The notes below the pieces were generated by a model. It did no database searches. It saw nothing but the letters and a program-made list of their open reading frames with translations, and was not told the DNA's origin. A stretch of DNA of 55,993 bases, counting the filler, from Dugesia japonica (Eukaryota): the NCBI GenBank assembly GCA_001938525.1. It is 4 parts of 4 records of this genome, joined end to end, with 100 filler letters (N's around TTAATTAATTAA, not from the genome) between each part and the next. Parts side by side here need not be neighbours in the genome. Positions count along the whole stretch, not along the records: positions 9,949 to 24,667 come from MQRL01582701.1; 3 more parts are not named here. One strand, written 5' to 3'. Positions 829-24,667 of this stretch are shown piece by piece. Numbering within the stretch: position 1 is the first letter of the stretch; each line of letters starts with the position of its first letter. Made by a program: the position numbers and the translations under genes.

Positions 829-1203
829 GATGGATTGGTCAGCATGACCTCATTAGTTTTATTGGTCAATACCAACACACACTTACCCCACCCTCCCCAC
901 TCTCTCCAGCCTCCCTGACCTTCCCTCTCTCTCCTCCGAGCATTCTAAGACCAACTTGCACATCAAAAAACACTTAAGAAATAAAAAATCACTTTAAAAA
1001 TCAATATTCACTTCAAAAATCGATAATTACTTCAAAAGTCGATAGTCAATAATCAATCGGATCAAAAATCGATAATCAATATATACGCGATAACTCATAC
1101 GATCGCAGACCCCACTTTAATCCGTTTTCGCTAGGTGGGATGGGGTAAAAGAATTTTGTGAATTGACCAATCAAAATGATGGGGTCATGCTGACTAATCT
1201 ACA
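829..1203. repeat. ~41-bp imperfect inverted repeat pair with CCAAT motifs flanking a repetitive spacer
   Basis: 829-869 (gatggattggtcagcatgacctcattagttttattggtcaa) is approximately the reverse complement of 1163-1203 (ttgaccaatcaaaatgatggggtcatgctgactaatctaca). The spacer has a pyrimidine tract and AAAATCGATA-like repeats. Confidence 0.75.
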
Positions 1204-1584
1204 TACTCTTTAAATGTTTCGTACAATTCATTTATTATTTCAAGATTCATTCTATAAATAAAATATATACTCAATATTCCACAGATTCTTATTCTCCACG
1301 GTTGTCCTTGTATTTTATTATATTTGAGCGCCTTTGGCGCTTGTAATTCTTTAGAGACTTGACTAATAGGAGGTAAACCAAAAGAATCAAAATAATAACC
1401 AGGGCGCTTCGGGATATATAAAGCAACCCAATGACTTCCTCTTTGTCTAGAGTTTTGATAATTAATTATATAATGCCCACGAAGCGGCCCAGTTAATTCA
1501 TAACTCATCAAGACTTGAATATTTAAATTTAAATGTTCTGCTATAGACAGTAAATCAAAATTAGTGGTTGTATTTATTCCAAAA
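1194..1584 (-). CDS. Adenain-like (adenoviral-type) cysteine protease, 5' end in gap
   Basis: TTNFDLL...YIINYQNSRQRGSHWVALY...YYFDSFGLPP...YNKIQ...ICG contains the His/Asp/Gln/Cys catalytic set. The frame stays open upstream of the listed ORF to the gap. Confidence 0.85.
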
Positions 1585-1639
1585 GNNNNNNNNNNNNNNN
1601 NNNNNNNNNNNNNNNNNNNNNNNNNNNNNNNNNNNNNNN

Positions 1640-2292
1640 NNNNNNNNNNNNNNGCAGTATTCTAAAAATTAGTCTACTGAAGTATACTGGATTTATTCTA
1701 ATCCAGTACGTGGAAAATTACTAATTTTTACAATTGGATTTGAATCCAATATTTCTTTAATTTCCATAAAATTATTATGTATTTGATACAAAGTTAAAGT
1801 GCAATATTTCATGATTGAGTGATTTATTCTTAAATGATAAAATTGTATACATTTGAACACAAGTATTTAATTCCATTCAATTCTAATTTTAACATTGTGT
1901 CTTTCTTTTTATAATTAAAAACCCTTTGTGATGTTCAATTTCTTGGTTTCTACTTTGGTTTCTAGTTTGGTATGAATACAAGTATATACTTCAGGATATA
2001 ATAATCTAAATTTGTGATATTCAATTTCTTCTTGTATTATTAAATTTCCAGTTTTAAGTTTCACTTCTGGAATAGGTTAAATAGTTTTATAAACCATTTT
2101 AATCTCTGATGTTTTAGATTTGACTATAGTTTTCTCTTTAATTCTCTTGTATAAATAAAAACTTAGATTATATCTATATTCAAAACATGTAAATTTATTA
2201 AGCCATTTTAATAAATTTGTTACTTCTTTTTCATCTTTCAACAGTTTGAGAATTTTAGGAAAATGATATTTAGTAAATATAGTTGTTTCCAT
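1640..2292 (-). pseudogene. Disrupted hypothetical viral ORF
   Basis: ORF 2077-2292 continues through stops and frameshifts. It is co-oriented within the viral cluster and no motif was recognised. Confidence 0.35.
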
Positions 2293-2302
2293 TTTTTTAT
2301 AC

Positions 2303-2901
2303 TTAATGTTTAATTCTTTTTTTTCCGAACATGTAATAAAAAAGTTATTCTTTCTCTATTTAAATCTATTGGTTTATACTTTTCATCTATAAAGTTTAAT
2401 TTCATTATATGTATAGTTTTGGTATTTAATTTAGAATATGTTGGATTTCCTAGTCTATCTGTCAATTGATAACCAAAAGGTACTGTGTTTAAAGGTATAG
2501 TGTATATTGGGACCGTAGGCCCTTTGTGAATGAAATCCTAAAATTGTATGGAAAAAGATTTTCCCATTAAATTTTAGCACTTTTGAAGCCGAAGGCTCCT
2601 TTGTGTAGGCCGACACCAGCTGAATAATAGCCTTACCAGTTGAATGATCATGAGTAAAAATAATATTTTCAAGTACTAAATTTTCAGCTATTTGTTTAAA
2701 TTTATATGATCCTGGTTCTAAAGATTTTTCAATTGATCATAAAAAATATTTATTCTTCTCACTTGTTATATTGAATATTATATTATAAGTTGAAAACTAA
2801 AGAAGAGCAATTTCATATTCTTGATCATCTAATTTTAATGGTTGATCAAATTTCAATTCTAAATTATTTTCTTGTCCAGCAATTAAAAATTGATGAGACA
2901 T
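2303..2901 (-). pseudogene. Minor capsid (penton-like) protein
   Basis: Manual translation: MSHQFLIAGQENNLELKFDQPLKLDDQEYEIALL*FSTYNNIFNIT...LEPGSYKF...IYTIPLNTVPFGYQLTDRLGNPTYSKLNTKTIHIMKLNFIDEKYKPIDLN. This is the typical Polinton/adintovirus penton pattern. Stop and frameshifts are present. Confidence 0.75.
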
Positions 2902-3052
2902 GATGAACTGATAGGTTCTTTTTAATGTAAATATTTTGAATAAAGAATCTTAAATAAAGAATTTTAAATAAAGGATTTAAAATTTTAAATAAACGATTTT
3001 AAATATTAGAAACGATTGTTCCTCGCTTTGCTGGGAGCTGATCACTAAAATA

Positions 3053-3965
3053 TCAAATCTTGTAACACAAATACTTTTTCTTGGTCCTTAATTTAAGATT
3101 TAATAATTCTTTACATACTAATTTAATTTCTGTTTGTAAATTATCATGTCCTGCTTTTACTCCAGAAATTAAACTTGTTAATTTTTCCCATAGACTAATA
3201 TAATTATTAGTTTCTGGAGTCTTACCGACAGCATCTGGAGTCTTACCGACAGCATCTTCAACTAAAGAGCTTTTACTATCATCACTTTTCCTGTTACGTT
3301 TTTTAAGAATTCTTTAAAAGTTGATAATAAATTACAACATTCTACATATTGCCCTTGCTTAAGAAATTTAATTCCAATATTTTTTAAAAAAATTTCTCTT
3401 GCTCGAAAACTATCAGATCCATGACCATAAATTAACATCATTACTTCTTGATTAAAAAGAATTAACTTTCCTGTAGAAGGAATATTTAAACCAGTTTCAA
3501 TATAAAAATATTTCTCTTCAGTTTCTGGAGTGTCTACGTTATTTTTTAAAACTAAATATATTCTAGTTTTTTCCCCCTTTTTATCAAAGTAAAAATTTCA
3601 TCATTAACCTTTACTTTTTCATCATGGGGTTTAATTGAATCAGATATTTGATATTTTAGTTCTAGAAAAATATCAAAATGAAAAGGTTTAAATTGATCAA
3701 GAAATACAGAATCATAATTATCTTCATCACTATTTTTGGTAACCTTGATATCTTGTAAACCATTTTCTAAATTGTTTATTGCTTCAATTGTAGGTTTTTG
3801 TTTAAAGGTTTCATCTTCAATAAAAATATTAGAATCTGTTTGTTGAGATGTTGATAAATTACTTAATTTCTCTCTAGTTTTAATTTGTTCTCGTAATATT
3901 TTTATTCTAGCACTAACCCAATCATCTGGATGGTATTCTATATCAAGCTTCAAAGAAGCTTCCAT
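3053..3965 (-). pseudogene. Conserved Polinton/MELD-type hypothetical (putative virion core) protein
   Basis: N-terminal coiled coil (ORF 3552-3965) and C-terminal WEKLTSLISGVKAGHDNLQTEIKLVCKELL. The latter resembles the 'L.LL.AS..AGN....EI..I..EL' motif seen in ORFs of such elements. Contains a short tandem duplication (tggagtcttaccgacagcatc x2) at ~3215-3257. Confidence 0.55.
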
Positions 3966-4030
3966 TTCTTAAAGATTGAACTTAAGATGTTAAATTAAAG
4001 ATTTTAACCTTAAAACAAACATTAAATAGG

Positions 4031-4225
4031 TTAAACACTCGCTTCACTCGTGTCATTCCATGGTTTTAAATATATCCCATCTCCTTGTTTTATAATCTCT
4101 AGTCCTTGTTTGAAATTCTTTGTTATTGATCTGAGGTTTGCTGTCGTTTGCACTCCAGAATTGTCTTCAACACCTTTCAAATATTTTTGTATAATATAAG
4201 AATAATTAATAAATTTGTTAAACAA
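4031..4225 (-). CDS. Small viral ORF with C-terminal GDGIYLKPW motif
   Basis: A G.G.YLKP motif is recurrent in small ORFs of adintovirus/MELD-like elements (possible protease-cleavage context; inference). Confidence 0.45.
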   Translation of the reverse strand: MFNKFINYSYIIQKYLKGVEDNSGVQTTANLRSITKNFKQGLEIIKQGDGIYLKPWNDTSEASV

Positions 4226-4462
4226 GGTTATGGTTATGATGATGATGATGTTCCCTTTTAAGAAATTGAGGAGCTATATGGTTACAATTACTGTCAAGAT
4301 ATAAAGCACCTTAGAGATAAAATTCTTCAATGTTATAATAATTATTTAAAAGAGAGGTATGAAAATACAAAATATGATATTCACTTTTGGGTTAAACATT
4401 ACCATTCTAGTTATCATGAAAATAATTATATAGATGGGATTAAGACGTTAACCTAGAATAAG

Positions 4463-5587
4463 TTATCCATCAATAATTCTTTTTCTCTATCTAGAAAAAA
4501 TAATTGTATTTCGTTTTCCAATGATAATTTGTTTCAAAATCATATCCATCCCTTGAGTGGAATATATTTGAAAATAAATGATGATAAACATTATCTTTAT
4601 CTCTTTTACCAAACTTGAAGAATATAAAACAATTGGAATTATTTCTTATTGAATTTTTATCCAAATCATAATATGTTTAAGCTATATATTACATTACAAT
4701 TATTATGTCTTACTCTTGTAAAGTAAGATTTTGAATCTGTTGATTTTTCTCATATACTACATCATCAAAGATTATCAAATTCTTCAAGTCTTTTGGTAAC
4801 TTGTCACATGGTAATATATCACTTGGTTTATTACTAATTGTTATTTGAATTCTTTCTGGATAATATATTATTGGTTCAACATACTTTTTATTTATAAACC
4901 ATGAAATAATCTCTTGTCGTAATTTAAAATCTAGAGGCACCAAATCTTGGTTTTCAAATATTAATAATAAATCTTGTTTTGATAATCCAGCTTCAAATCC
5001 ATGTTTAATTAATTGAATTTNNNNNNNNNNNNNNNNNNNNNNNNNNNNNNNNNNNNNNNNNNNNNNNNNNTATCACTTGGTTTATTACTAATTGTTATTT
5101 GAATTCTTTCTGGATAATATATTATTGGTTCAACATACTTTTTATTTATAAACCATGAAATAATCTCTTGTCGTAATTTAAAATCTAGAGGCACCAAATC
5201 TTGGTTTTCAAATATTAATAATAAATCTTGTTTTGATAATCCAGCTTCAANTCCATGTTTAATTAATTGAATTTTAAACTGATTAATTGTTGTACTAAAT
5301 ATTATTAGATTGTTGTAAACTATGAATGACCGCGAAGCTGTTGCTTGCGCTTCAGAGTCAGTCTTTCTTACAATTAATTCTTGTTTATCTGATGGGCAAA
5401 CTTTGGTTCCACAATCCAAAAGCATTCTCATTAATAAAAGATTTTTACCACAACCCGATGATCCAATAATTAATTATCTAAATTGTGGTGGAAATATCTT
5501 GTGTTTAAATTTACTTGTATTAGTTTTCCATATTAATGGAGTTGAAGGATGACCCGAAGGGTCTTGTTTAATTTTATTACTAGACAT
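4463..5587 (-). pseudogene. A32/FtsK-like genome-packaging ATPase
   Basis: ATG at 5587. PPQFR*LIIGSSGCGKNLLL (Walker A, T/S replaced by N), NLIIFDDV (Walker B), RHNNCNVIYIA*TYYDLDKNSIRNNSN (Arg-finger region). Internal stops; part of it is duplicated across the gap at 5021-5070. Confidence 0.85.
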
Positions 5588-5597
5588 TTTATTAAGA

Positions 5598-6730
5598 TTA
5601 AACTTTACACATTGATTTAAAGAGAGCTTGCTTATGTGGAGCGTTAGAGACACTCGCTCGCTTTATCATACTTGTCTTTTGAAGTTCATTATTATAAAAT
5701 CTACCTAGAAACTTTTAATTCTCCAAATCAGTAATTCCATTAGTAAAAGGTTTTGTATTGTATACTTTTGTTACTACAAATATTTCACTTGTCCATTTAG
5801 CTGTAAAACCTTTTCAAATTTATACTTGTATTTAAAAATTCTTACTAAATCTATAATTTTAATCTCCAAATTTAAAACTAATGCTGTTGTTGACAGTATT
5901 ATGATTTTTATTTATTTCTTTTATTTTATCAGGATTTTCACTAGCATATTTTGGTGTTGTTTTAATAGAACTATGAATTATATTATTATAATCATTTAAA
6001 ATTTTTTGTAATAGTTTATTATCCCATTTTTGGTTGCCAACTAATTTAAAATATTTCCACATTTTATTTTTTAGAGTTCTAATAAATCTTTCTGGAAAAA
6101 CTGATTTACCTTCATTCTCTGTATGATATAATTTAAAATTATTTTTCTTAAAGAATTAATCCATGTATTTTGATCTAATTCTTGATTCTTTGTCAAACCA
6201 AATNNNNNNNNNNNNNNNNNNNNNNNNNNNNNNNNNNNNNNNNNNNNNNNNNNTTTAATAGAACTATGAATTATATTATTATAATCATTTAAAATTTTTT
6301 GTAATAGTTTATTATCCCATTTTTGGTTGCCAACTAATTTAAAATATTTCCACATTTTATTTTTTAGAGTTCTAATAAATCTTTCTGGAAAAACTGATTT
6401 ACCTTCATTCTCTGTATGATANNNNNNNNNNNNNNNNNNNNNNNNNNNNNNNNNNNNNNNNNNNNNNNNNNNNNNNNNNNNNNNNNNNNNNNNNNNNNNN
6501 NNNNNNNNNNTATTATTTTCTTAAAATATATTTTCATAAGCTTCTCGTAAAGATTCTTGATTTTTATTTTTCATTGGCTCACAAAAACCAAATCTATAAT
6601 ATCACAACCTTAAGTATTATCTTTTTTTTTTTATTACTTTTAGAAAATGTTTTAAGTTTTCTGTATTCTTTATGAAGTTCATTTGATAATATACTCCGAG
6701 CAAAGCAAGGAGTTTGGTTCTCTTTATTTT
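5598..6730 (-). pseudogene. Retroviral-like (rve) Polinton integrase
   Basis: ILSNELHKEYRK (N-terminal), RFGFCEPMKNK..ESLREAYENIF, MWKYFKLVGNQKW..LLQKILNDYNNIIHSSIKTTP, GFTAKWTSEIFVVTKV, GRFYNNELQK. Gaps and frameshifts are present. Confidence 0.85.
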
Positions 6731-6779
6731 CATTATTATTAGTTAAAGGGAAAGTCTTCGCTTCGCTCAAACTTGCTCC

Positions 6780-7438
6780 TATTATAATATGAAGTTCAAG
6801 AGTATTAATCTTGATTGTTGCTTTATGATCCTTCTTTCCAAAGAATATTAATTCATCTTGTTTATTCCTCGTACAATCTAACTGAATAAAAACATTAAAT
6901 AGTAACCTATTATAATTTTGTAAAAACCCAAAAAGATTTCTTAGTGTGAAATAACCTTCATACTTCATACAAGAGTTATACAATTCTTTTCTTTTAGTAA
7001 AGCTTGGATCATCTACTGTTCCTGTTTTTACATTTAGGATCCATCCATAAGCCATAGTACACGGTAAACTAGAATCGCCATACATTATTAAATTTAACAT
7101 TGTAGAGGATATTCCTACATTTCCCAAATCTTCAATTTTGATGATTCAAGTTTTAATCTCATGGAATCAAATAAATTAGGAAACCAATTATTTTCCAAAC
7201 TAACATCTGGTTTGGTTGGATTAGAAAGAATAATTTCAATCTTGTAATATAGTTTTGAATTTCCAATGTCTATGGGATTGGTTGATTGGAGTGATTGAAA
7301 TGTAATTTCCCCCAACTTGTTTAAATTGTTAATTGAATCACTAGTGGGACTTATTTTCATCAAATCATTTTTAGTTTGCAAGTGTAAAAATTTAGAATTT
7401 AAATCCAATTTCATCTTCTATAGTAATATTTTGCTCAT
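6780..7438 (-). pseudogene. Major capsid protein (double jelly-roll type), N-terminal part only
   Basis: ISPTSDSINNLNKLGEITF...DIGNSKLYYKI...LENNWFPNLFDSMRLKL...VGISSTMLNLIMY...GW...SFTKRK...LRNLFGFLQNYNRLL..V.IQL..TRN. Frameshifted, and runs into integrase sequence. Confidence 0.75.
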
Positions 7439-7479
7439 GTTATCTTTTTAACTTTTATTTGTCCTACATCACTTGTTCC

Positions 7480-7999
7480 AGCATAAACTCTACTTACCTT
7501 GTTTTTAAATTTTGAAGGTACTTTTCAAATCAATCTTTTTTCAGTTATTTCATTTCGTTTTTCTACATCTTTCATGACATTTATACAATCCATTGAAGTT
7601 AGTAAAACATCTTTCTTTGGTATTAGACTACAATTTAAAGCAGGTAATTCTACTAGTTGTGGTTTCTTCTCAAGATTATACTTATCCAATAACTCGTGTT
7701 CAACTCTTTCTTTCTGAAAAGTTTCTTCTAATTCTTTTATATATTCAAAATTCTTTTTACTTTCAATACTTAAAATATTAATCAAAATACCCTTGCAATC
7801 ACTTTCACAAAATTTACTAACCATTATACTTATTAAACTTGTCATTATCTTCATGTGTACTTATTTGTGTATGCATATTCTTCAACGTTGTAACATACAT
7901 CTTTGCTGTTTTACAAGTTAAATCATGTTGACAAAAATTACTAATCTCTTCCATACTAAACTCTCCCAAAGTTGCAAATTTATTTACTGTATTATACAA
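7480..7999 (-). pseudogene. Disrupted hypothetical viral ORF
   Basis: Overlapping ORFs 7817-7999 and 7525-7854 appear to be one frameshifted gene. No motif recognised. Confidence 0.4.
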
Positions 8000-8158
8000 A
8001 GTATTTAAACTAAGAATTTCTTTACCTTTATTTGCTTTTGCAATTTTCTATAGTAATAATTCGGATAAACCGAAAACGAAAAACTGAATATCGAAAATCG
8101 AACTGTAATCTGAAAACTGATATCTGAAAACGGAACACGGAAACTTTTAATTATAAAA

Positions 8159-8445
8159 ATGTCTACTAATTTAAAAGAAGAAGAGTTTTATGAGTTGTTG
8201 AAGAGTTATGATTTTATTAATAATTCTCTAGTTAGTTTTTCTAGAAAATATGGAGAATGTGTTAAAACAATAACAAATATTTAAACTTGCTCAAAATTCG
8301 TTATAATAAACAAACTAGAGTAATTAAACAAAAACGTGAAATAAATGGAAGATATACTTTTTCTTTAATTAGATCTAGTCAACAAGAACTCATTAATCGA
8401 GAACCTATTAAAGTAGAACCTATTAAAGATACTACTAAAACATAA
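8159..8445 (+). pseudogene. Small HTH-like protein, paralog 1 (frameshifted)
   Basis: MSTNLKEEEFYELLKSYDFINNSLVSFSRKYGECVKTIT/KYLNLLKIRYNKQTRVIKQKREINGRY. Confidence 0.55.
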
Positions 8446-8543
8446 AAGCAAACCAAAAATCAATTTCCTCACAATGTCCAATGAAGACTTTTGTAAGAAA
8501 GTAGAAAAAGATGTTTGTAATACTAAATAAACGCCATTATAAA

Positions 8544-8771
8544 ATGTCTACTAATTTTAAGAAAGAAGAATTTCATATGCTTTTAAAAAATTATGATTTC
8601 ATCAATCATTCAATTTCCAGTTTTTCCAAGAAATATAAAATCTCTGAGAAAACAGTTAGAAAATATTTAAATTTGATCCATATTCCATATAATAAACAAA
8701 CAAGAACCATTAATCAAAAATGTAATGCTAATGGTAGATTTAGTTATTCTTTACTTGATCGTTATCAAGAA
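8544..8771 (+). CDS. Small HTH-like protein, paralog 2 (3' end in gap)
   Basis: MSTNFKKEEFHMLLKNYDFINHSISSFSKKYKISEKTVRKYL shows an HTH pattern (S....A.KY.IS..TV.KYL) and is a clear paralog of 8159-8445. Confidence 0.6.
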
Positions 8772-8870: not shown

Positions 8871-9848
8871 TAAAATTAAGGTTAAAGGAGATCCAATAGC
8901 ACATGACTCTAGATGACAACCGATGCATTTAGAAAATAAAATTGAAGATATTATTAAAGAGTTAGCAAAGATTGGTGTAATCAGCAGGTGTAATATTCCT
9001 TGGAATTCTCCATTAGTGATTGTGGGTAAAAAGGACGACTCAATAAGAATGTGTGTGGATTACAGGCAAGTAAATTTGAGGACAGNNNNNNNNNNNNNNN
9101 NNNNNNNNNNNNNNNNNNNNNNNNNNNNNNNNNNNAAGGAGATCCAATAGCACATGACTCTAGATGACAACCGATGCATTTAGAAAATAAAATTGAAGAT
9201 ATTATTAAATAGTTAGCAAAGATTGGTGTAATCAGCAGGTGTAATATTCCTTGGAATTCTCCATTAGTGATTGTGGGTAAAAATGACGACTCAATAAGAA
9301 TGTGTGTGGATTACAGGCAAGTAAATTTGAGGACNNNNNNNNNNNNNNNNNNNNNNNNNNNNNNNNNNNNNNNNNNNNNNNNNNNNNNNNNNNNNNNNNN
9401 NNNNNNNNNNNNNNNNNNNNNNNNNNNNNNNNNNNNNNNNNNNNNNNNNNNNNNNNNNNNNNNNNNNNNNNNNNNNNNNNNNNNNNNNNNNNNNNNNNNN
9501 NNNNNNNNNNNNNNNNNNGATTAGCTACAGCACCGGCCAATTTTCCAAGGTTAATGTACGAGTAATTGGAGGGATTAATTTTCAAAGAAGTTATTGTATA
9601 TCTGGACGATATTCTGGTGTAAGTAAAATCTTTGGAGGATCACAACTAAATGTTAGAAACAGTCTTTTACAGAATCAGAGACTCGAGGTTACGAATAAAC
9701 ATGGAGAATTTTAGGTTTTATCAGAAAGAAGTGTTATTCTTATGACATACAGTTAGTGCAACTGTTATACGCACTAACAAAGTTAGGATTCAAGAGATTA
9801 AGAATGCTATAGTTCCAGAATGTTCTTCAAAACTCCGTTTGTTTCTCG
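8871..9848 (+). pseudogene. Ty3/Gypsy reverse transcriptase fragment
   Basis: PWNSPLVIVGKKDDSIRMCVDYRQVN, LATAPANFPRLM, IVYLDDILV, FL*HTV. Segment duplicated across a gap. Confidence 0.9.
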
Positions 9849-9892
9849 NNNNNNNNNNNNNNNNNNNNNNNNNNNNNNNNNNNNNNNNNNNN

Positions 9893-9904
9893 TTAATTAA
9901 TTAA
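9893..9904. other. Artificial scaffolding linker TTAATTAATTAA
   Basis: Six-frame-stop 12-mer centred in an N run; identical at 24712 and 40099. Confidence 0.95.
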
Positions 9905-10501
9905 NNNNNNNNNNNNNNNNNNNNNNNNNNNNNNNNNNNNNNNNNNNNATTCATGTAATTACTTGGTATAAATATAAAACCACAATAAACGATTTATTAA
10001 TGGTCACCCGAGAAACCCAACTAGTAGTAGACCTGAGAGTGTATTGACAAAAGATGGACAATTTAAGCGATTTAGCCACATACGGACAACTTAGTTTATG
10101 GGACAGAGCGGAATGGTGGAAAGAAAAAACCTGTACGAAGCTGAAGTAAGAACCACGTCAACTATATCGGACTAATATATTCGGGTAAGGCTCCTCAGTA
10201 AAAAGAGAGTAATAAAGAAAGTAGACATGATAACACTCAATATGCTAACTATGAGGCAGTATTTACGCCAATAAAAAAGTTTATATGGCCTAAATCGCTC
10301 AAGACATAACCACGCTATAGGTAAAATAAAAGCTTTTTGGAATTTAAAAAATCAATAATTTTGTAGAATATTTATTAAAATTTCTTAGATTATTTGTTTG
10401 AATATTGTGAATTGTGCTTTATCATTTTTCATTTTAATAAAAGACTTGTAATAATCAAAAAACAATTTATGAAGACTTGTGAGAATTTAAATTCAACTAA
10501 T

Positions 10502-10980
10502 ATGGCGACTAACGCATCACTCGATTTGCTAAAAGAAGCCCTGAACCCTGTAATTTTTAAATCGGTTGATGATGTTGAAAAATTCTTTTTGAAGACAACG
10601 AAGTATTTTGATATAACGGGAACAAAGAAAGGTCAAAAGAGTTGGTTTCTAGTTACATTCATAAATAGAGAACTGCGTGAAATCTTTGAAAATGAAGACG
10701 AATCATAGGGATATGAAGAAAGATTCAGAAAGGCTTTCTTTAGACCATCAACAATGATTAAAGATACGGAGGAAGCTCTAAATTTTTAAAGAAATGGAGA
10801 GCATATAAATATCTATAAGAAGAAGATTGAAGGATTGGTAGAAAAGTTAATGGCTCATAAATGTATAAAGAACATGAGAAGCTTTTTGTGAATATGCAAT
10901 TACTTCAGACTGTTTATCAATAATTGCACAAAGAAAGCTAGAAACTTGGAAGAGCTACGTGGAAAATATCTTTCAGCAAA
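10502..10980 (+). pseudogene. Ty3/Gypsy gag N-terminus fused by deletion to an RT/RNase H fragment
   Basis: MATNASLDLLKEALNP..FK..DDVEKFF...KYFDITG (paralog at 20027), then MRSFL*ICNYFRLFINNCTKKARNLEEL (RT thumb LRSFLG..NYYRRFI). Confidence 0.75.
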
Positions 10981-11042
10981 AACTGATTTACACTAATTTT
11001 CTGTATGGTATAAATTAATATACCATACTAGNNAAAGTTTGA

Positions 11043-12190
11043 TTGATAATTGAAGACCCAGATATCGAATTGTACTGCATGAGTCAAGGTCGAGAAAAGA
11101 TAAAACAAATACCAATAGTAAAAAAAAATAGCCACAATTTTAGATTACCAGAAAATTTTATACGAAGAATGGGATGTTATAGCGTGATGAAAGTTTTCGG
11201 CAAAACATATCGAAGCGATCATAAGACAGCATTAACATTACTCAAATAGCCTAAGCGCCTACATAGGTTAATCAGAGATATGGCCAAATCATGACTCTAT
11301 TTCTTTAGAACCAATGTCGAACTAGATCAAGTGAAATGCATATACTGCCAAGGAAATTTATATATATGGAGACAAAATAACAAACCAGAAAGAGACTAAA
11401 AACTATCATTCCCCACTTGTTCATTCCTGCAAAATTTGGATGTAAATAATCAATTAATCCTAACCAAAGGCAAAAAACAAGAAATTGAAAATATGACCTT
11501 GGAACCCAAGAGACTTATATTGTAAAATAATAAAAAACCTAGCAGAAGTAGTACTACTAGACGATTTGGAATAGAATATTGACGCTCGAGAAGAAACCTT
11601 GAAGGAAGCACCAGAAATGCTAGAAAAAGCAATGGAAGGATTATATATCACCAAAAAGAAAGACATGAAAGTCATTAAATGCACAACATGCAAAAAAAAA
11701 TGGAGAGATACTTTTTAGAGAGAAATTACCGCAAAACCTATTTCATCAACCAAAATGCTCAAGATTAAACCACTCTCAAAATGACCTACCTGAAACAGCA
11801 CGTAGAGTAGAGTGGAATATGTCAAAAATAGAATAGAATTAACAGTTGATTTTCGAGCAGACAAATTATCTAAAATACTCAAATTGAGAAAAGAAACCAC
11901 AAACGTGTTGATCTTTAGAACAGTAGCAAACAAAAGAAAAAGAAGTAGTAACACCATATGAAGCGTGCCAACAATCACTCAGAATTACACTCAAAAAAGT
12001 GCATTACCAACAGGAATGGATTTTGATGGACAGTGTCTGTGCAAATTGTCTTGATGAGTTTATTCAAGTCATATTCCTTCCCTGCTGACATTTTAAAACA
12101 TGTTATAATTGTGCTCTCATTTTAAACGAGTGTCCTATATGTAGACATGTAATCAAACGAAGTGTGTTGGGAATGAAATTCAAACAATGA
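11043..12190 (+). pseudogene. Inhibitor of apoptosis (BIR-BIR-RING) pseudogene
   Basis: BIR1: LTLLK*PKRLHRLIRDMAKS*LYFF...DQVKCIYCQGNLYIW...PERD*KLSFPTCSFL (~11200-11430). Degenerate BIR2: AREETLKEAP...AMEGLYIT...VIKCTTC...HQPKC (~11580-11760). RING: CANCLDEFIQVIFLPC*HFKTCYNCALILNECPICR (12038-12145). Confidence 0.85.
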
Positions 12191-12290
12191 GGTATGTAAG
12201 AAATGCGTAAATAATTGTCTATAGTGTTTTATACTCTAATTGTCTCCTTATTGTAATGCTCTAAATTAATAACTCTACCTAATTTAGAAA

Positions 12291-13075
12291 ATGAATGACA
12301 AAAATTTGATTACCCACCTTCGTACTAAAATACAAACTCTACAAATACAAAATAAATCTCTCATAATCGTTCCTGAAACCCTAAAAAAATGAAATTAGAT
12401 TCAAAACAAAACGCTCTCCTCAACCTTCAACTCTAAATTCATATCTGCAGGCTGGAAACCAAAATAGAAAAAATTAGTCATGAGTTAGAAATCAAGCAAC
12501 GATCTTGCAACGCACACAAAAATACTGATCGAAAAATCTCTCGACAAAAATCTGGCGAAAATTATTGCTATAACGCAAGCTCGTAAATGGAAAACAAAAT
12601 TCAAAAATGTCGAACCTGAAAGACAAGAACTTGAAGCCAAGTTAACAGTCAAACAAGAAAATAACCAATCTTTGCTACTAGAATTATTCAACACTCAATT
12701 TGAAAGAAACAGACTGGAAACCGAAAATCAGCTACTAATTAGTCTAGCTAACCAGGAAAGCGTTCCAAGGACATCAACACAGCACAAGTCAAGGTAAAGC
12801 TTTACAAAACTCGATGTAACGAGTATCGTCAGGAAGCAGAGGCTTCACACACTCATGAGTGAGTTTGGAAAAGGCAACTCAAGACCTTCACCGACTGCAT
12901 CCCGGAGCTACACGAGCGTGAAAGAAATCTTGTAACCGAATTGCTAGATCTGCGTAAAAAGATATCTTTAGACCTGCTCGCAATAAATAAAGCGATTCAT
13001 AAGCATCGCAATAAGAAGGTCGAAGAGAAACTTGCCATCTGTTGTCATAATAACAAAATTAATAGTGCCACTTAA
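12291..13075 (+). pseudogene. Accessory coiled-coil protein (cassette A)
   Basis: Frameshifted heptad-rich ORF: ...RQELEAKLTVKQENNQSLLLELFNTQFERNRLETENQLL.../AQVKVKLYKTRCNEYRQEAEASHTHE*VWKRQL. Homolog at ~17780-18060. Confidence 0.55.
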
Positions 13076-13172
13076 TTTTGAATTAGTTTATTTTTTTTGT
13101 ACGTCATCGGATTATTTGCTGAAATATAACTATTTATAAGATCTCTGTTAATTGCAATTTTCTTTTAGTGAC

Positions 13173-13524
13173 ATGAGTACGCCTCCCGAATAGCCTGAAG
13201 AAATTCCAACGTTTGCTTCAAAAGTCCATTCTTGAACGCCACTATTCAAAACGTTTTCAGCGAACCCTACTCTGTCATTTCTCGCAGAAGAATAGCCTGA
13301 TTAAAAATCTCGAAACCATAAGTAAAAAACAACTAGAAATTGTCAGTCGCATGAACCTGCAACTCCTCAATAAAATCAATTTCTTAAAACAGTACATTGC
13401 TAATCGGTCTTAACGCTTCAAATTCGAGACATGGTCAAGTTGGACTGATTTCGACGATGATACCGCGTTCGACTTTTCAGATGACGCGCCCGACGAATGG
13501 CTTGATCCAGGAGTTTCCAATTAA
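13173..13524 (+). pseudogene. Small accessory protein with acidic tail (cassette A)
   Basis: TATA-like tatttataag at 13131, ...LQLLNKINFLKQYIAN...WTDFDDDTAFDFSDDAPDEW, then AATAAA at ~13534. Homolog at ~18240-18420. Confidence 0.5.
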
Positions 13525-13587
13525 ATATAGAAAAATAAATCTTACTTAGTATACGAGTTGTCTTCGTTTTTAATCTATTATTAATTA

Positions 13588-13746
13588 AAGAGAATTATGA
13601 ACCCGAATTAAAGGTGTACGAGTGTAAACTCCAAGTAAGGGTTTGGAGTTAACAGATCTGCACCAAAAGCCTTAAAACGGGATCCACTAAGGGCTGTCTT
13701 TTTTCACCAGAAAAGTTTTCTATCCGCAACTCAGGTGGAAACTCAA
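13588..13746 (+). repeat. Putative PPT and start of 3' LTR (element A)
   Basis: Purine run aaagagaa, then sequence similar to 18500-18570, including the hairpin AACTCCAA-N8-TTGGAGTT. Confidence 0.45.
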
Positions 13747-14438
13747 TCTTGAATCAACCGATCTGGCGTCCCTTCATAATCTTTACAATTTATAAATTCA
13801 GAAAATAATTTCGGCGTAACTCATTAGTGCTGTATTGATTATTCAATTCCTTTTTCAGTGTTTCACAATTTAGAACCTTCGACCCGTTGACCAAATCAAT
13901 CTTTTTATGCGGCTTAGTTGCAGTTTCAAGATTTTTAAATGCACACATTCTGACTATAGTTTCTATAAAAATTAAATCTGAGTTCATTGCAATTGACTCC
14001 TTTACTTTCCCGTAGCACATTCTTTTTGAAATTATATACTTCACGACCATGTCTTCTGTTTGCTTCACCGACAAAACTTCTCTTATCAACTTCGTCAGTC
14101 TAATAGCAAAATTTTCATACCTTTCATTTGATTGTTGATTAACTTGGCTTATATCTTCGATCTTTTGCAAAAATGTTTTTGACTTGATATACTTTGAACT
14201 GTACCAATCTGAAAGAATCTTTATTCTTTCCTTAATGGCAATAGATCAAATGCTGCACATTAATTAAAGGAATTTATAGTTACAAATTCTTCAATTGATT
14301 TTTTGTATCTTCTTCCTTGTAGCCAAAAACTTTTTTATTATTGGATAAATTGATTCTTGAACATTCTTTGGCAATGATTCTACAATTTTCATCCGCTGAT
14401 GACTCTTTGTGAGAACTGTGATTTCCGCGTGGTTACCA
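13747..14438 (-). pseudogene. Ty3/Gypsy PBS plus gag fragment (inverted insertion)
   Basis: PBS-like TGGTAACCAC at 14438. Gag motif ISQVNQQSNERYENFAIRLTKL (Q...E....F..RL..L). Confidence 0.7.
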
Positions 14439-15769
14439 GTTACAATACCAACTTGACACATTAAATAAAAAAATGCTTTTTAAAAGTTTATTATAAAACC
14501 ATTTCTGAATATTTAAACAATATTATCTTGTTGTTACTATTGTTTAAATTACACAGGTCTTTAATGTTTTTGATATGTTCATTGAATTTCTCATCTAAAA
14601 ATAGGATCTACTCATTTTTTATAGTATAATTAAATTTGGATGTCCATTTTGTATTTTAATTGTTTTTTGTTCCAGTCGTAATTTTGGTTTGACACTGATA
14701 TAAAATTTTCTTTGATTATTTTTTTTGAATAATGTTCTAAATGAAATATGTTTTAAGTATAAATTTAATCCGTGATAAATAATAAAAAATTCCCTGATCT
14801 GATAATCGAATAATCCCAAAGTTCTGTTTTGTAAAATTATTAGCTTACTTAAATTTGTCAATCTTCATTAAAAGTTCTTATATACAGGGAGTATATATTT
14901 ATATTTCTTTTCATTTCATAAAGTCGAATAAACAAAACATCGAAATTTCTTGAAATTCGACCAAAAATAATTAAAATCTGTTACTGAGAATCAATCTAAT
15001 ACTTTCATATTTTTTCTTTGATTACAATTGATTTAATAAATTTTTATTAATATTTCAATTTTTTCTTGTAATTTGTATTTTCAAATTTTAACAATAAATA
15101 ATTTAAATGCATTACCAAACATTTTTATAAATTGAAATTTCAAAGAATTTTCCATGGAAATAGTTAAGAAATTGTATTTAAAATGAATTTTGCAGAATAA
15201 TTATATCAAAATAATTGAGCAATTAGTTTCTTAAGATTTTGAACAAAAGAAATTTCAACAATTACTTTTTGGACTAAATTAAATGAAATCTTAGGGAAAG
15301 TAAATTTTATTATTATTTCCCGGTTAAAATTTTTGGTTAGTTAAATATTTAAATCGATTTCATATCTGAATGGACTTTTTCTAATTTTCACTGTATTATG
15401 TAAATATAGAAGTAATTTTTAATAAACAGCTTTAAAAGTTATTTCAAAATATATTTTACTACATGTTTAGACATATTATTAGAGATGATCCGATATAATT
15501 TCTTAATCCATTTAATAGTTCTTATAAAAATTCTGATGTTTAATCAATTATACAATCTCTTCAACCATTAAAATTAATTTTCAAACACTCAATAAAGACC
15601 TAGAAAGATCTGTTTCAACATAGAGACTTCAATTTAAAAAAGTAAATAAAAAATGCTAGAATATAAATATTGTAGATATTTCTAAAGAAATTAAAAGATT
15701 GATTTGGCCAGCGGCCCGAAGGTTCTAAATTGTGAATATTACTTGTAAGAACACTGACAAAGGAATTGA

Positions 15770-16720
15770 ATAATTGGTTGAGCACAAATGAGTTACGTCG
15801 AAATTATTTTCTGAATTTATAAATTGTAAGGATTATGAAGGGACTCCAGATCGGTTGATTCAAGATCTGGAAATTCTAAAGTTGGAGAAAAACAACAAAT
15901 ACTTGGGGATAATAATGAACATAGTAAACGTGTTTTTACCAGATAAGTGAAACGTGTGACGTATACATCTGGTAAAGCATAAGATAATGACTAGGATTGA
16001 ACCGATCAACATAGAAAATATCATCACCAACTAGACTTGGATGAACGAGCAATCAGAATATAATTTCATTTTGAAATATAGGAAAAGTAACACTATTCCA
16101 ATATTGATGGTATGAAATGACATCCAATTATTGTTCACAATGTCAGGTTGAACTTAAAAATGCCAAGTCCAAATCATCTAAGGTAAAATTATTTTAATGT
16201 TATGAAAGTTTTCAGTGGTGGACAATTACATAAAAGAATTTAAAGAAGATAAATTAATTAAGGGAATGAAAATTTATTTGATGGACAAAATCGTTAAGTT
16301 ATCAGAAACGGCAAAATCTTCCCAGTATATTAAATATTTAAATAAGTTTGTAATTGTAGACCATATGCTGCTAATAGAGTCGGATGATGAGCGAAAAGCT
16401 TTGGTTGCAAAAAGATGCGTAACTAATTTTATAAACAAATTCATAAAGACTTGCAAAGTTGGAATAGAATAAATATTGTAGACGGAGAAACCAATAGCTT
16501 CTTCCTTTAAGTTAAATATATTAAATTAGATAAATTATTGAGTTAAATGGTGAGAGATAGTCTTTTTGACACTTCTAATTATTGCGAAACTCATCCTCTT
16601 TATAGTGATAAATTGAATTCTGTCGTAAGGAAATTTATCGCTGAAAATAAGGCAAATAAATATATTGGACTTTGAGGTTTTTGTGATATGTGTTTTAATA
16701 ATATTGTTGGAGTTTAACAC
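15770..16720 (+). pseudogene. Ty3/Gypsy gag tail and pol (RNase H/integrase linker) fragments (element B)
   Basis: 15788-15866 is an inverted copy of 13747-13822. W..EQSEYNFILKYRK resembles the RNase H C-terminal motif. ORF 16215-16472 resembles the RNase H-integrase linker. Confidence 0.55.
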
Positions 16721-17208
16721 TAACTATAAGAAGGGACCCTCAACTTGATAAATTAATAAAACTAGAAAGAAAAAAATGATGTAATGATGACAGCAATTAA
16801 TAATAGCTTTCAAATTAATTGGAAGAATAACTTTAATGAACCAAATAAGAAACAATTTCGAGTAAAACCAGAAATAATAATAAATAACATAAAAAATAAT
16901 TAAGACCCAAAAATAAGACTCGTGATTAAGTTTAATCAAGAAAAATTCGGAATGGTAATTTAAATAATTAAAATTATTAGAAACGAAAGCGAAAAATTAT
17001 TTTAAAAAAATTAATTAATAGGTACAAAACAAAAAGGTCAATGACATAAAAATCTGAAAAGGCGAATAATTTTTCACAGAATGGTCAAAACCTGGATAGC
17101 TCTTGGTAAAAGCAGCCAATTTTTACCAAAATTAAGAAGGTACTATTTTCAGAAGAGTCAAAAAGATTAGGCCAATGAGAGGCCATGAAAAACGCCAAGA
17201 ACAAAGGC

Positions 17209-18420
17209 ATGAAAATCATGTGGCACTTCTTACCAAAGTCACCTTAATTCGTCTTTAACCTCAATTGTTAGCTATGGTAGACATTACCCAATGTCTCATT
17301 AAACGGCCCTGATGACCACAACAATTTCAGACAAAAATTATTTTATATTCTTCTAGACTATGCCCAACCATACTCCTTTTTTCTAGTGTCTGAATATGGA
17401 TTGCGACTGGTCCTCAACGTCACAGTGCGAATGGTGTTCCGCTATTTGAAGAACCCCTATAACCGCAATGTGGGTATTTTGGTAGACCGTTCTAACCTAC
17501 CTCCTTTTTGCACGAACAACGTCAAGTAGATAAGGCCGAGCGTTGGCTGTATCAATATTTGCTAGACCGGGGTCAGATTACGAAGAGTATAGCATCAACC
17601 CCAGGTACTCTGACGTCGTCATCTGATGATCATTCTGAAAATTATTAAAAATAAATGTTGTGTCTAGTATAAGTTTTATACACCTGTTTTGTTTTCTTTT
17701 TGTTAATCACTAAATTACGTCTGTGTAGCTGGATTAGTTTGACTACAGACTCACTTTTTGTTTTCAATTTTTAGTGAATATTCCCCTATCACGATCATTG
17801 GCTTCAGCTTAAAACTACGCGTGGATAGCGATGAGGACGAAATGTCCTGAGACGTCTACCGTCTCGCCAAACGGAGATGGGAAGCGGATGTAGCGGCTGA
17901 GAAAGCAAAAATTAAATTTTACAAAATCTGTTGCCGCGATTATTTAGTAGAGACAGAACTCTCTTATTCGCCGGAGACAGTTTGAAAGGCTCAGTTTGAG
18001 TCCTCAGCCGAGACGATTCGAATGCTCCTTGAGCAAGAGATTATTTAATGATGTTCTGAACTTGCCCAAACGGATTTGATTAGAACCCCTGAAAATTTTC
18101 AAGACCAGACAGACTCGAAATAAACTATGCATTCTCAATATCTTTGTAAATATAATGTTTTTGATCAATTGTTTTATTGTTCTCCTCATAACTCAAATAA
18201 AAATTGTTTAACAATTTTTTAACAATTGTTTTATCATTTTGTTTAGAGCCACAAAATTGCTAACAAAACCGTGAACAAATTTTTCAATGAAGTTTATGTT
18301 CTCAACCAGTACATTGCGGACTTAAGCGCCGGGCTTAGTCGTGAAAACTTAGAACAATAAAGACGATGAGGCCGCAATCGATTTGACGGATGATGTGCAA
18401 GTAAACTGTTATTATTAAGA
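17209..18420 (+). pseudogene. Accessory ORF cassette B (Cys-rich ORF, coiled-coil homolog, acidic-tail homolog)
   Basis: CLNMDCDWSSTSQCEWCS; RRWEADVAAEKAKIKFYKICCRDYLVETELSYSPETV*KAQF; NKFFNEVYVLNQYIAD...DDEAAIDLTDD. AATAAA at ~17650 and ~18438. Confidence 0.55.
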
Positions 18421-18491
18421 ATCTTTCGTTGTCGTGTAAATAAATGTTGCTCTGCATCTGGCTATTTTTTTATCTTATTCACTATGTTATT

Positions 18492-18578
18492 AAGGGGAAT
18501 GTTGAAACCAATGGGAGTCTGTACTCCAACTACGAGTTGAGAGTCAACGGCTCTATTCCGAAAACCTAACTGGTGACA
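18492..18578 (+). repeat. PPT, short or internally deleted LTR, and PBS
   Basis: AAGGGGAA (PPT) followed directly by TG at 18500, hairpin ACTCCAACT-acg-AGTTGAGAGT, then TGGTGAC (tRNA-Trp-like PBS) at 18571 preceding a gag. Confidence 0.6.
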
Positions 18579-18593
18579 TAAGGTAAATTCTTC

Positions 18594-19269
18594 ATGGGGT
18601 CCACTGATATACCTCTTAGACAAAATCTAACTGCCACCAAAATTGCTGGAATTTGAGAAATACCAGATTATGATGAATTTGATAGAGAAAAAACTCTCTT
18701 ATCAATATTTTTGAAAGGGGTTAATAATCGTTTGGGAGCCAGAGCCACGAAAATTATGAAACTAAACACTCTGAGAAAAGCTTTTAATTTTTTGAATAAG
18801 AAAAATAAAACTCGACATCATGATAAATTGCGAATTATTAGCAATGGTGTTAACACAGAAAAATAGCAAGAAATAGAAATCTTAAAACGAAGAATAATTG
18901 ATCTTGAAAATCATATAAAGTATTTTGAAAGAAACGATGAAACAGATTATCTAAAGTATGCAGTTCAAAAAATCAAACACGAATTAAAATTATATAATTG
19001 CAATGGAAAAGGTCATATTGCTCAAAATTGTAACAAACAATTGTTATGCAAGAACTGTAACAAATACGGACGTATATCTCGAATTTGTCAAATATATCAA
19101 TTATCCAGACGATATTAAGTTGGATGAGTATATTCTAGGATTAAGACACAAATTTCTAATTCACAAAGGACAAAGAACAATGATATCAGATACAAAAAGC
19201 GAACCCGCGGTAAACAAAACAATAATCAAAGGCAAAGTAGAACAAAAGGTACGCAGACATTTCACATAA
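18594..19269 (+). pseudogene. Ty3/Gypsy gag with two zinc knuckles
   Basis: LLSIFLKGVNN; YNCNGKGHIAQNC and CKNCNKYGRISRIC (degenerate CCHC). Confidence 0.8.
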
Positions 19270-19385
19270 AAACTTTTCACATAAGGAATTTTCAAATAAA
19301 ATTTTTCAAATATAGAATTTTCACATAAAAACTTTTCAAATAAAAACTTTTCACATAAAGACTTTTCACATAAAGACTTTTCACG
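19258..19385 (+). repeat. ~15-bp tandem repeat (AAAACTTTTCACATA-like), about 8-9 copies
   Basis: Directly visible imperfect tandem units at the 3' end of the gag. Confidence 0.85.
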
Positions 19386-19949
19386 TCAAATTTAGAAATA
19401 TTACAAGCAATATATTATAATATAATAGATCAAATAAATAAAAGATCAGAAGAACAAATCAAGCAATATTAAGAATAAAAAATCAAATTATTATATCAGA
19501 TAGTAACATCAGCATGGTTAATGTTTAATTTGATTAAATAAGTTAAAGATTTATGAAATACATATAAGATAATGTAATCACAAAATATACAAGTTAATTA
19601 TTTAAACTTGAATAAAATATTTTACAGTATATCTTGATGAAAATTCCATTAGAATGTTAATCAATATTATTCAAATTTCATCTTTTGAAACAAGAAGTTG
19701 TTTTAATTGAAATAGATTTGGCGCTACATTTATCATATGATTTATATTAAACCAAAATTCTTTATATAAACTTTATTTTTAGAGATTTTAAATGTATACA
19801 GTTACAAAGACAACTAAGAATAAATATATGCTTAGAGATGGTGAGTTTAAACTCTAAAATGTTAACTAGAGTTTAACATTTAACTAGAGTTTAACCATTA
19901 CTGGTTTGCACGAAATTTGGAATATGCTATAGTAGGTTACTAACGAATT

Positions 19950-20440
19950 TGGTTTCTGGCAGCAATGATATTATAGTATATAGGAGTAAGCCACACTGTC
20001 TTTGTGAGATTTTAAATTTAAGTAATATGGCGACCAACTCATCATTAGATTTGTTAAAAGAAGCTGTGAACCTTGGAAATTTCAAATTTGGCGATACCGA
20101 AAAAATCTATTTTGAAGACAACGAAATATTTTGATACAACTGGAACAAAGAAAGGCCAAATGAGTTTGTTTGCAGTTGCTTTCATAGATAAAGAACTGTG
20201 TGAAATCTTTGAAAATGAAGATAAATGATTAGGATTTGAAGAAAAATTCAGAAAGGCTATCTTTTGGCCATCAATAATGATTAAATTTATGGAGGAAGCT
20301 CTAAATAATCGAAGGAATGGAAAGCAAATAAATACCTATAAGAAGAAAGAGGCATTAACAAAGCACCGACATTGAGCTTTCTCGATATCAAATAGATGTT
20401 TGTACTAGATACAGATGCAAGTTTTGATGCAATCGGAGCT
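19950..20440 (+). pseudogene. Ty3/Gypsy PBS-like site, gag N-terminus and RNase H fragment
   Basis: TGGTTTCTGGCAGC at 19950, MATNSSLDLLKEAVN (paralog of 10502), LTKAPTLSF..FVLDTDASFDAIGA. Confidence 0.8.
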
Positions 20441-20559
20441 ACATTCTATAACGATTTGGATGTTTTGGCCGGTATAACCAAACAAACATCAATGCCTGAA
20501 ACAGTTAATGGGATACAAAATTCTTTAAGATCAATTATTCTTAATGCTAGTTCCTGTTG

Positions 20560-20800
20560 CATAATAAACTCGCCATATAATACTACATATATTGGTACAC
20601 CATTTCTTAAATATGATTCTGGTGTAAAAGATATTCAAAGAGTTTTATTATTTTATTCTTATAAATATATAAGTAGAAGTCCTCATTTATATTCTGATGG
20701 GACATTTAATAAAGTTTCAAGTATTTTTTCCAGTTATATACAATACATGGAGAAGTTTAAGTGCATAACTTTTCTTTTATATATGTCTGTGTTTTTGTAA
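20560..20800 (+). pseudogene. MULE/Mutator transposase fragment
   Basis: FLKYDSG...RVLLF...LYSDGTFNKV...F(S)QLYTIHG motif set. Confidence 0.75.
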
Positions 20801-21219
20801 ATCGAAGCATAAATTTATAGATTTAAGTTTAATTATTTATTACACTAATTAGATTTAGTAAAATTACAAATTTCAAAGAATAATAATAATAACAATAATA
20901 ACAGTTTAATTACTCACGTAACACCACACTTTCAAAAACAACCGTCCAAATCACAATGCCAATCAGCTAAGGATTTAAATAACGGAATAAGCAACACGAT
21001 AATAATTATTATTTAACTTTAAAGATTACTCCAAGCTATCTATTTTAAATTCACACTCAAATTATTCTGATTTACCACGCATCTTTATTAATCAAACACT
21101 GCCATTTAATAAATTAAATCAGTATGTATTTACTAAAATTAAACATATACTGAAATTTAATTTCAGTATATGCTTTATCTCTTTCTCACAGATAGGATTA
21201 TGAACAGACATTCAGCCGA

Positions 21220-21906
21220 TATGAATAAAAATGCGAAAAATACTGTAATAAATATAATAACAGAATTTAAAGTTATATTTAGTAAAGATAATAATGATAT
21301 CGAACATTTTCAATTTTAAAATACGAAATAGATGTCATTGGTCCTAAACATATTGCTCAACCATTAAGAAGAGCTTCCCTTCATCTAGAAAGTAAAATAG
21401 ACAAAATCATCAAAGAGCTTGAACAAAACGTAATCATACGGGNGAGTTCAAGTATGTGGTCTTCTATTGTGGTTGTTNAAAAGAAATCTGGAGACATTAG
21501 GTTATGTATAGACTATAGAAAATTAAACTCAGTTACTAACAGACCTATGCATTCTTTTCCAGATAACCAACTGTTGTTCAATTTACTTGAGAGATCAAGA
21601 TTCTTTAGTGCACTTGACTTTTCTTAAAATATAGAAATAAATGACAAAGACAGAGGAAAAACCGCTTTTGCGACAGGAAAAAGTCAATATAAATTAAACT
21701 GTATGCCTTTTGGACTGCGTGGAGCACCAGAAACGTTTCAAAGATTAATGCATCAAGTTTTCAGCGAAGAAAACTTTGATAAATGTTTTATATATCTCGA
21801 TGATATTTTGATTTTCGGGAAAAGAATAGAGGAATTCAATGAAAGACTGAAAACGGTATTAGAAAAGATACAGCAGTCAGGAGTTAAGTTATCTCCCAAG
21901 AAATGA
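21220..21906 (+). pseudogene. Ty3/Gypsy reverse transcriptase fragment
   Basis: KKSGDIRLCIDYRKLN, FFSALD, KTAFAT, MPFGLRGAPETFQRLM, IYLDDILIF, GVKLSPKK. Confidence 0.92.

Positions 21907-24633: not shown

Positions 24634-24637
<4 letters not shown>

Positions 24638-24667
<30 letters not shown>
24638..24667. repeat. (TA)n microsatellite at contig end
   Basis: Visible TA run abutting the gap. Confidence 0.9.

Follow-up and report, generated by a model that had tools for sequence, protein, structure and literature searches.

A decayed BIR/RING inhibitor-of-apoptosis gene in the planarian Dugesia japonica, perhaps a stranded piece of a giant Ty3/Gypsy element

The genome of the planarian Dugesia japonica (assembly GCA_001938525.1) contains a broken inhibitor-of-apoptosis (IAP) gene, and we ask here what this gene is and what may have carried it to its present place. 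It lies in a stretch of 55,993 nt, the window, along which all positions are numbered; positions 9949-24667 come from record MQRL01582701.1. The window is gapped, AT-rich and full of transposon debris. Pieces of a Ty3/Gypsy gag and reverse transcriptase (RT) come before the IAP pseudogene, with a reverse-strand scrap of Polinton/Maverick integrase between, and two further decayed frames and a tail come after it (Table 1). We refer to the IAP pseudogene, these two frames and the tail as the cassette.

The IAP pseudogene is real, intronless and dead. It has one BIR that is clear and a further repeat that is BIR-like but degenerate, and a RING stands at its C-terminal end. In the domain searches, in-frame stops were read as X. 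Pfam recognizes the BIR at 11190-11459 (PF00653, E 9.5e-9, 36.1 bits; cut-off 22.9) and the RING at 11981-12190 (PF13920, E 2.4e-12, 46.9 bits; cut-off 27), and at least one BIR with a C-terminal C3HC4 RING makes this a member of the IAP (BIRC) family. The region 11043-12181 is colinear with residues 79-477 of an intact protein, P0022, running through three frames without introns (37, 28 and 29% identity; 48% for the RING alone). The second repeat, at about 11580-11760, is BIR-like, frameshifted and degenerate, and matches the Pfam BIR in no frame. Its first half reaches E 1e-3 with a home-made BIR profile, the same profile giving only E 0.32 for the equivalent repeat of intact P0022, and it is 28% identical to P0022 residues 250-295 (pairwise E 2e-5). 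A UBA profile built from 11 segments finds the UBA of P0022 at E 2.5e-15 and scores the pseudogene linker at E 0.45.

Six in-frame stops (11247, 11292, 11397, 11523, 11572 and 12086) and at least two frameshifts interrupt the gene, and its 5' end is absent. Four of the six stops hit conserved BIR or RING columns, one of them a zinc-ligand column. RNA was searched in one run of 1,887 million letters: nine partial reads match the IAP, every one less than 90% alike, and no read matches at 80% over the full length; therefore no close expressed parent is seen. A second run gives no read and carries no weight. With its internal stops, its frameshifts and partial, diverged RNA reads, this is not a functional gene by open frame or by expression. 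There is no poly(A) after the IAP stop. A first-pass annotation of this DNA had described an apparently intronless gene with two BIRs and a RING, in which stops replace conserved codons, and had suggested checking it with Pfam BIR and RING profiles. The absence of introns and the placement of the stops hold, and both profiles match above cut-off; of the two BIRs the first stands, and the second is the degenerate repeat that Pfam does not match.

A HMMER search of 1.84 billion representatives returned 739 matches at E 0.001, with P0022 among the best 150. P0022 has 483 residues and the BIR, UBA and RING of a cellular-type IAP. Its summed score of 192.6 bits is the highest among 244 IAP-like proteins (119.1 for the runner-up), and a search with P0022 itself shows no other close relative among 4970 candidates. 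Ranked by similarity to the pseudogene BIR, P0022 comes first and P0100 second of 675 aligned segments (707 extracted), and the viral BIRs listed fall at 381-572; for the RING, P0022 is first of 198 and the viral rows are at 85-192. A BIR tree (69 rows selected of the 707, 82 columns, bootstrap unsettled) puts the pseudogene, P0022 and P0100 in one set at 97/85, with the viral rows elsewhere. Because both the ranks and the tree set it with P0022 and P0100, apart from the viral rows, the IAP seems to descend from a cellular XIAP-type gene and, within the sample, does not look viral in origin. The viral sample is a handful of IAPs, none named as a baculovirus IAP3, and no grouping with these appears in the ranks or the tree. 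The baculoviral-IAP3-like origin proposed in the annotation, which had called for such a phylogeny, thus finds no support in it. Scanning viral contigs with P0022 matched five stretches and no locus; the RING motif matched nothing in metagenomes or viral contigs; and alignment A1 matched 152 stretches of metagenomes, none of them a relative. Planarians possess a xiap (PMC4993586). In the available text of PMC13159474, a survey of 312 species, RING-IAPs are reported lost from the flatworms sampled, with no planarian in the main text, and intronless, dispersed IAP duplicates are said to be common among animals.

The IAP is not a lone retrocopy, because diverged copies repeat it together with the downstream frames. 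Contigs with an identity of about 83-87% extend over all three frames: IAP, coiled coil and short acidic. A 906-nt contig matches both 11720-11900 (29 differences) and 12029-12475 (79 differences), and others join 11899-12198, 12117-12280, 12846-13140 and 13373-13463 with order and spacing conserved; further joints, at 13444-13534 and 13572-13678, occur in three runs at depth 2,000-2,700. Such colinear, diverged copies across the IAP and the frames behind it are not what a single processed pseudogene presents. Relatives reach depths of 1,006-4,257 over the RING core, 640-840 over the start of the 12291 frame and 2,000-2,700 over 13537-13692. Depth is low, 11-290 per bin, over most of the cassette, and contigs of the locus itself have depth 10-14, one to two orders of magnitude below the relatives; these depths come from the best-supported rows listed and give an order of magnitude only, not a copy number. 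The pattern speaks for the cassette being an old, diverged member of a repeat family's gene region.

Table 1. Features in and around the cassette
Feature	Positions	Strand	Evidence and remarks
Joiner N44-TTAATTAATTAA-N44 (12 letters, stops in all frames)	9849..9948	.	Identical at 24668-24767 and 40055-40154
Possible Ty3 integrase-core remnant, out of order (5' of gag)	9978..10148	+	By eye only
N-terminal third of high-copy Ty3/Gypsy gag, two stops, cut off	10469..10863	+	83% to P0003 residues 1-131
Ty3 RT thumb scrap, 36 codons, fused to gag piece	10858..10964	+	Ty3 RT 4ol8, phmmer E 0.0066
Polinton/Maverick integrase scrap	10968..11021	-	83% over 54 nt to 6086-6139
IAP N-terminal part with canonical BIR, 5' end absent	11043..11528	+	Pfam BIR E 9.5e-9; 37% to P0022 79-234
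Second repeat, BIR-like, degenerate, broken by a frameshift	11545..11800	+	P0022 250-295, 28%, E 2e-5; own profile E 1e-3
Linker where P0022 has its UBA; UBA not recognizable	11800..11980	+	UBA profile E 0.45
IAP-type C-terminal RING, one internal stop, natural stop 12188	11981..12190	+	PF13920 E 2.4e-12; P0022 48%; high-depth relatives 12072-12129
Decayed coiled-coil frame, about 260 codons, four frame pieces (frameshifted)	12291..13075	+	Translation; AG three bases before ATG
Decayed short frame with acidic, Trp-containing tail	13173..13524	+	Pyrimidine tract and AG four bases before ATG
Tail without recognizable polypurine tract or LTR	13525..13745	.	Joined to preceding frame in another copy; high-depth relatives 13537-13692
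Piece of second Ty3 gag, right end of cassette	13746..14467	-	Gag_p24_C E 1.4e-3, below cut-off

Neither downstream frame matches a Pfam family, and the Atlas recognition value of the coiled-coil frame, 1697, is under threshold. The two accessory open reading frames (ORFs) of the first-pass annotation are thus present as frames, both of them decayed and without a family. High-depth relatives share the start of the first, and diverged copies of the second are found at 13156-13542. Both ATGs have a splice-acceptor-like AG within three or four bases on the 5' side; this does not discriminate between carriers, because several Polinton genes in the window also have one.

The tail at 13525-13745 contains no Pfam family beyond chance in six frames and no significant fold (z -1.0). 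As the end of the cassette it was tried as a long terminal repeat (LTR) with polypurine tract or as a Helitron end, and rejected for lack of a purine run and of a significant fold. A motif seen by eye also suggested that 13537-13745 might be a protease belonging to the opposite-strand gag; this was dropped, because neither Pfam nor PDB supports it and another copy has the sequence joined to the cassette. The plus strand has no purine run of 10 or more in 13200-13800; no direct repeat longer than 31 nt is present among the 20 largest of 26 families in 9949-16600; and paired LTRs with a target-site duplication are found neither there nor among the repeats listed for the whole window. At the right border, 13746-13908 recurs inverted at 15690-15866 (about 170 nt, 89-91%), the two arms enclosing some 1.8 kb; they look like opposing pieces of one Ty3 family, not terminal inverted repeats, and no target-site duplication is seen at them.

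On the left, the gag piece is cut from a gag type represented by P0003, which has 367 residues and three CCHC knuckles. The integrase scrap resembles 6086-6139, whose frame matched Preplasmiviricota clusters (0.97) and an rve cluster (0.88), and a double-jelly-roll (DJR) capsid frame (E 2.3e-4) lies 500 nt away. The junctions between the RT scrap and the BIR are genuine, since a single contig runs through both scraps into the BIR (10932-11547) and differs nowhere from the window. Related contigs diverge into other sequence at 10858, 10863, 10964, 10968 and 11021 (at least 9-54 per run), with 23-54 contigs per run leaving at the first three of these positions (23-40 at 10858 and 10964, the ends of the RT scrap). 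High-depth relatives of the integrase scrap depart at 11021 (9 contigs, one run), and 11034-11118 is near single-copy. Summed depth per bin is 22,000-45,000 in the gag region and mostly 20-300 in the IAP, or about a hundredfold difference.

Elsewhere, a second copy of the P0003-type gag (20002-20480, plus strand) is also cut off, and 20002-20347 has no IAP behind it; an RNase H-like piece, seen by eye, follows this copy, and a separate RT piece lies within 21298-21906 on the plus strand (RVT_1 E 3.1e-19). The candidate Ty3 integrase remnant at 9978-10148 is unsupported, with no Pfam integrase match and no PDB match. Larger RT pieces at 8871-9848 (Pfam RVT_1, E 1e-10) are divided from the contig of the cassette by the first of three identical joiners, which we infer to be artificial; sequences on either side of a joiner are not to be taken as adjacent. 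Duplicated ends also border several of the gaps (8885/9136, 4817/5071, 5961/6254 and 33523/33845), and these are likely assembly artefacts.

Codon composition was compared among the pieces, in a window with an overall GC content of 0.276. Third-position GC is 196/628 (0.312) in the cassette and 204/709 (0.288) in five Ty3 pieces, which do not differ (p 0.34). Ten Polinton pieces have 188/1145 (0.164; p 1e-12 against the cassette, or 2e-4 by piece), and the host formin has 218/956 (0.228; p 2e-4). This formin, an intact intronless diaphanous gene for 987 residues at 51190-54153 on the minus strand (Pfam FH2, FH3 and GBD), is the sole long open frame of the window; two of 8000 scored candidates are related to it at E 1e-100 or better, one at 75% and the other, a trematode protein and the best named match, at 33%, as suits a flatworm host.

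Our best explanation, to which we give about even confidence, is that the dead gene with its BIR, BIR-like repeat and RING is a stranded accessory-gene piece of a giant planarian Ty3/Gypsy element resembling Burro. Such a carrier fits better than a Polinton in third-position GC, which in the cassette resembles that of the Ty3 pieces. A XIAP-like gene of the flatworm itself would have entered an ancestor of the element as a spliced copy and would then have lost its UBA. The IAP would have travelled with other short genes, each probably expressed from its own spliced RNA, as the acceptor-like AG before the ATGs suggests. By analogy with established IAP biology, the BIR of an active element may have bound caspases or signalling adaptors, and the RING may have ubiquitylated the bound targets, so that the cell in which the element replicated would have stayed alive. 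The present locus is probably the product of nested insertion and deletion in a transposon graveyard, and now has no function.

Several points weigh against this explanation. No pol, env, LTR, primer-binding site, polypurine tract or target-site duplication of a carrier is present here or linked in any copy. The likeness to Burro is a likeness to its published description, not the outcome of a sequence comparison. As available, PMC6431247 allows that the Burro BIR lies within a giant ORF1 polyprotein, and it names no IAP-type RING; the D. japonica IAP has its own stop. The lone Polinton-like scrap in 8871-55993 sits about 20 nt from the broken 5' end of the IAP, and the divergent orientation of the two is the outcome expected from one deletion inside a Polinton. 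The composition test is based on a single Polinton family and on decayed frames, and the bootstrap of the BIR tree is unsettled.

That adjacency is the core of another explanation, in which the cassette is cargo of an adintovirus-like Polinton/Maverick whose internal deletion put the middle of the integrase beside the IAP on the opposite strand, the Ty3 pieces having landed later to left and right. The scrap abuts the broken end of the IAP and is the only match elsewhere in the window to the decayed Polinton at 1-8771, which has divergent small genes at its right side; the contig across 10932-11547 ties scrap and BIR together; and adintoviruses carry homologues of Bcl2 and IAP (PMC8502044). 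We nonetheless consider it unlikely, since the third-position GC of the cassette is 0.312 against 0.164, the cassette apart from the scrap has no similarity to the Polinton of the window, and relatives of the scrap leave at 11021, just before the near single-copy stretch. The Polinton itself occupies 1194-8771, mostly on the minus strand, with adenain-like protease, penton-like protein, packaging ATPase, integrase and DJR major capsid; ATPase, penton and protease are assigned by motif only, with no Pfam match and one weak PHROG match. On the plus strand it also has a small helix-turn-helix-like gene in two copies that diverge (8159 and 8544), and a scan of viral contigs with its integrase matched 53 stretches and no relatives. 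A minus-strand piece at 7800-8050 was tried as the BCL2 domain of Burro and rejected: its neighbours are Polinton genes, and its Bcl-2 likeness is by eye with no Pfam match.

Alternatively, a host xiap could have left a retrocopy that was multiplied passively, by segmental duplication or by a non-autonomous element, with unrelated debris for downstream frames. The cellular-type P0022 as closest relative, the intronless duplicates known from other animals (PMC13159474) and the low depth over most of the cassette fit a retrocopy; a host gene would hardly give depths of 1,000-4,000 over the RING core or of 640-840 where the next frame begins, and the missing poly(A), the composition unlike that of the formin and the missing full-length RNA match in the run searched all count against it, so we hold it to be improbable. 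The first-pass annotation had instead suggested one compact Ty3/Gypsy element in the order gag, pol, IAP, accessory ORFs, polypurine tract and LTR, placing the IAP in the env slot, which in errantiviruses lies between pol and the 3' LTR. This is largely refuted and, in our estimate, very improbable. It is correct that gag and RT pieces precede the IAP on its strand and contig, and the composition of the cassette fits Ty3. These are tiny scraps, however: the order gag, protease, RT, RNase H and integrase on one strand is reduced to gag residues 1-131 and 36 RT codons, and what adjoins the IAP on its 5' side is the reverse Polinton scrap, with no Ty3 integrase. Nor is it supported that the gag and pol pieces belong to the IAP's own element: related contigs leave at each upstream junction, gag depth far exceeds IAP depth and no IAP follows the second gag copy. 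Neither the env slot nor the annotated PPT/LTR-like site survives, with no purine run and no LTR-sized direct repeat or LTR pair. What does remain of the idea of mobile-element cargo is that copies keep the IAP with its downstream frames and that BIR-bearing planarian Gypsy elements are known. Least credible to us is an endogenous fragment of a large DNA virus (baculovirus-, nudivirus- or nimavirus-like): intronless, closely spaced frames on one strand would suit it and such viruses do carry IAPs (P0227; L001-L003), but the few viral BIRs and RINGs sampled rank low and stand elsewhere in the tree, and no viral contig matched P0022 or the window motif.

A bolder proposal is that a high-copy planarian mobile family, distinct from the Burro elements described, might have taken the host XIAP-like gene as a complete, stand-alone BIR/RING ligase with separately spliced accessory genes, its RING constrained across hundreds of copies and rewiring host signalling. 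We think this improbable. If it were true, a retrotransposon (or Polinton) with a stolen E3 ligase would rewire stem-cell apoptosis or TAK1/p38 signalling, and flatworm RING-IAPs would survive partly as element cargo. As it stands the locus has little weight, being a dead fragment of a cargo type reported for planarian giant retroelements and adintoviruses. It would gain weight if the IAP of the carrier turned out to be a complete E3 ligase that came from the host and is kept by purifying selection, given that PMC6431247 raises the idea of meddling with the host and PMC13159474 reports the loss of RING-IAPs in flatworms. For annotation there is a caution: element-borne copies may pass for host IAP genes.

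Other debris in the window includes decayed mariner-like transposase frames and possible piggyBac-like frames, all seen by eye (42591-43344, plus strand; 27405-28380, minus strand), a tandem array of seven copies of a 15-nt unit (19257-19393) and a GC-richer stretch with decayed frames (17200-19300, plus strand; 0.32-0.38).

Baculoviral IAP3 and Drosophila DIAP1 have the architecture BIR-BIR-RING, and the D. japonica pseudogene has the same overall domain order; it differs in its degenerate second BIR, and its affinity to the sampled viral and DIAP1-like proteins is only at the level of the family. With cellular RING-IAPs of the XIAP, cIAP and DIAP2 type, P0022 included, it shares the BIR, the linker and the C-terminal C3HC4 RING, and it is colinear with P0022. 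Unlike them it is broken and lacks its 5' end, has no recognizable UBA and a non-canonical second repeat, and is repeated together with foreign downstream frames. Adintoviruses and Polintons likewise carry intronless apoptosis regulators as integrated animal elements, and an integrase scrap of that class adjoins the IAP; no PolB, capsid or terminal repeat is linked to the IAP, however, and the codon composition is sharply different.

Burro/GYPSM1 elements of planarians are giant Ty3/Gypsy elements with BIR, Smc-like, BCL2-like, MATH and ankyrin motifs and accessory ORFs (PMC6431247), so that a BIR-carrying Gypsy element, which the first-pass annotation had not regarded as a standard Gypsy feature, was already on record. 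No publication that we found describes a Ty3 element whose cargo is a stand-alone BIR/RING gene, although the primary Burro paper (Grohme 2018) or Kapitonov and Jurka 2006 may do so; PMC8532177, PMC13238120, PMC11410931 and PMC13524379, as available, contain no BIR information. The D. japonica cassette departs from Burro in its stand-alone, RING-ended IAP, with no Burro polyprotein, env, BCL2, MATH, ankyrin or LTR attached, and in the adjacent gag, a short type of 367 residues where Burro has the head of a 5,000-residue ORF. It is a fragment of 2.7 kb; the Burro described exceeds 30 kb, with LTRs and a giant gag-env-pol polyprotein. The same source, so far as available, reports one planarian in which nothing but decaying fragments of Burro/GYPSM1 exists, and raises interference of these elements with host apoptosis or ubiquitination as an untested idea. 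The cassette has a BIR and relatives at high depth, which would fit a high-copy, BIR-bearing repeat. With Burro it has in common the likely host group, BIR cargo, a coiled-coil (Smc-like) neighbour, accessory ORFs, decay into fragments with stops and frameshifts, and, on the side of the cassette, a Ty3-like composition.

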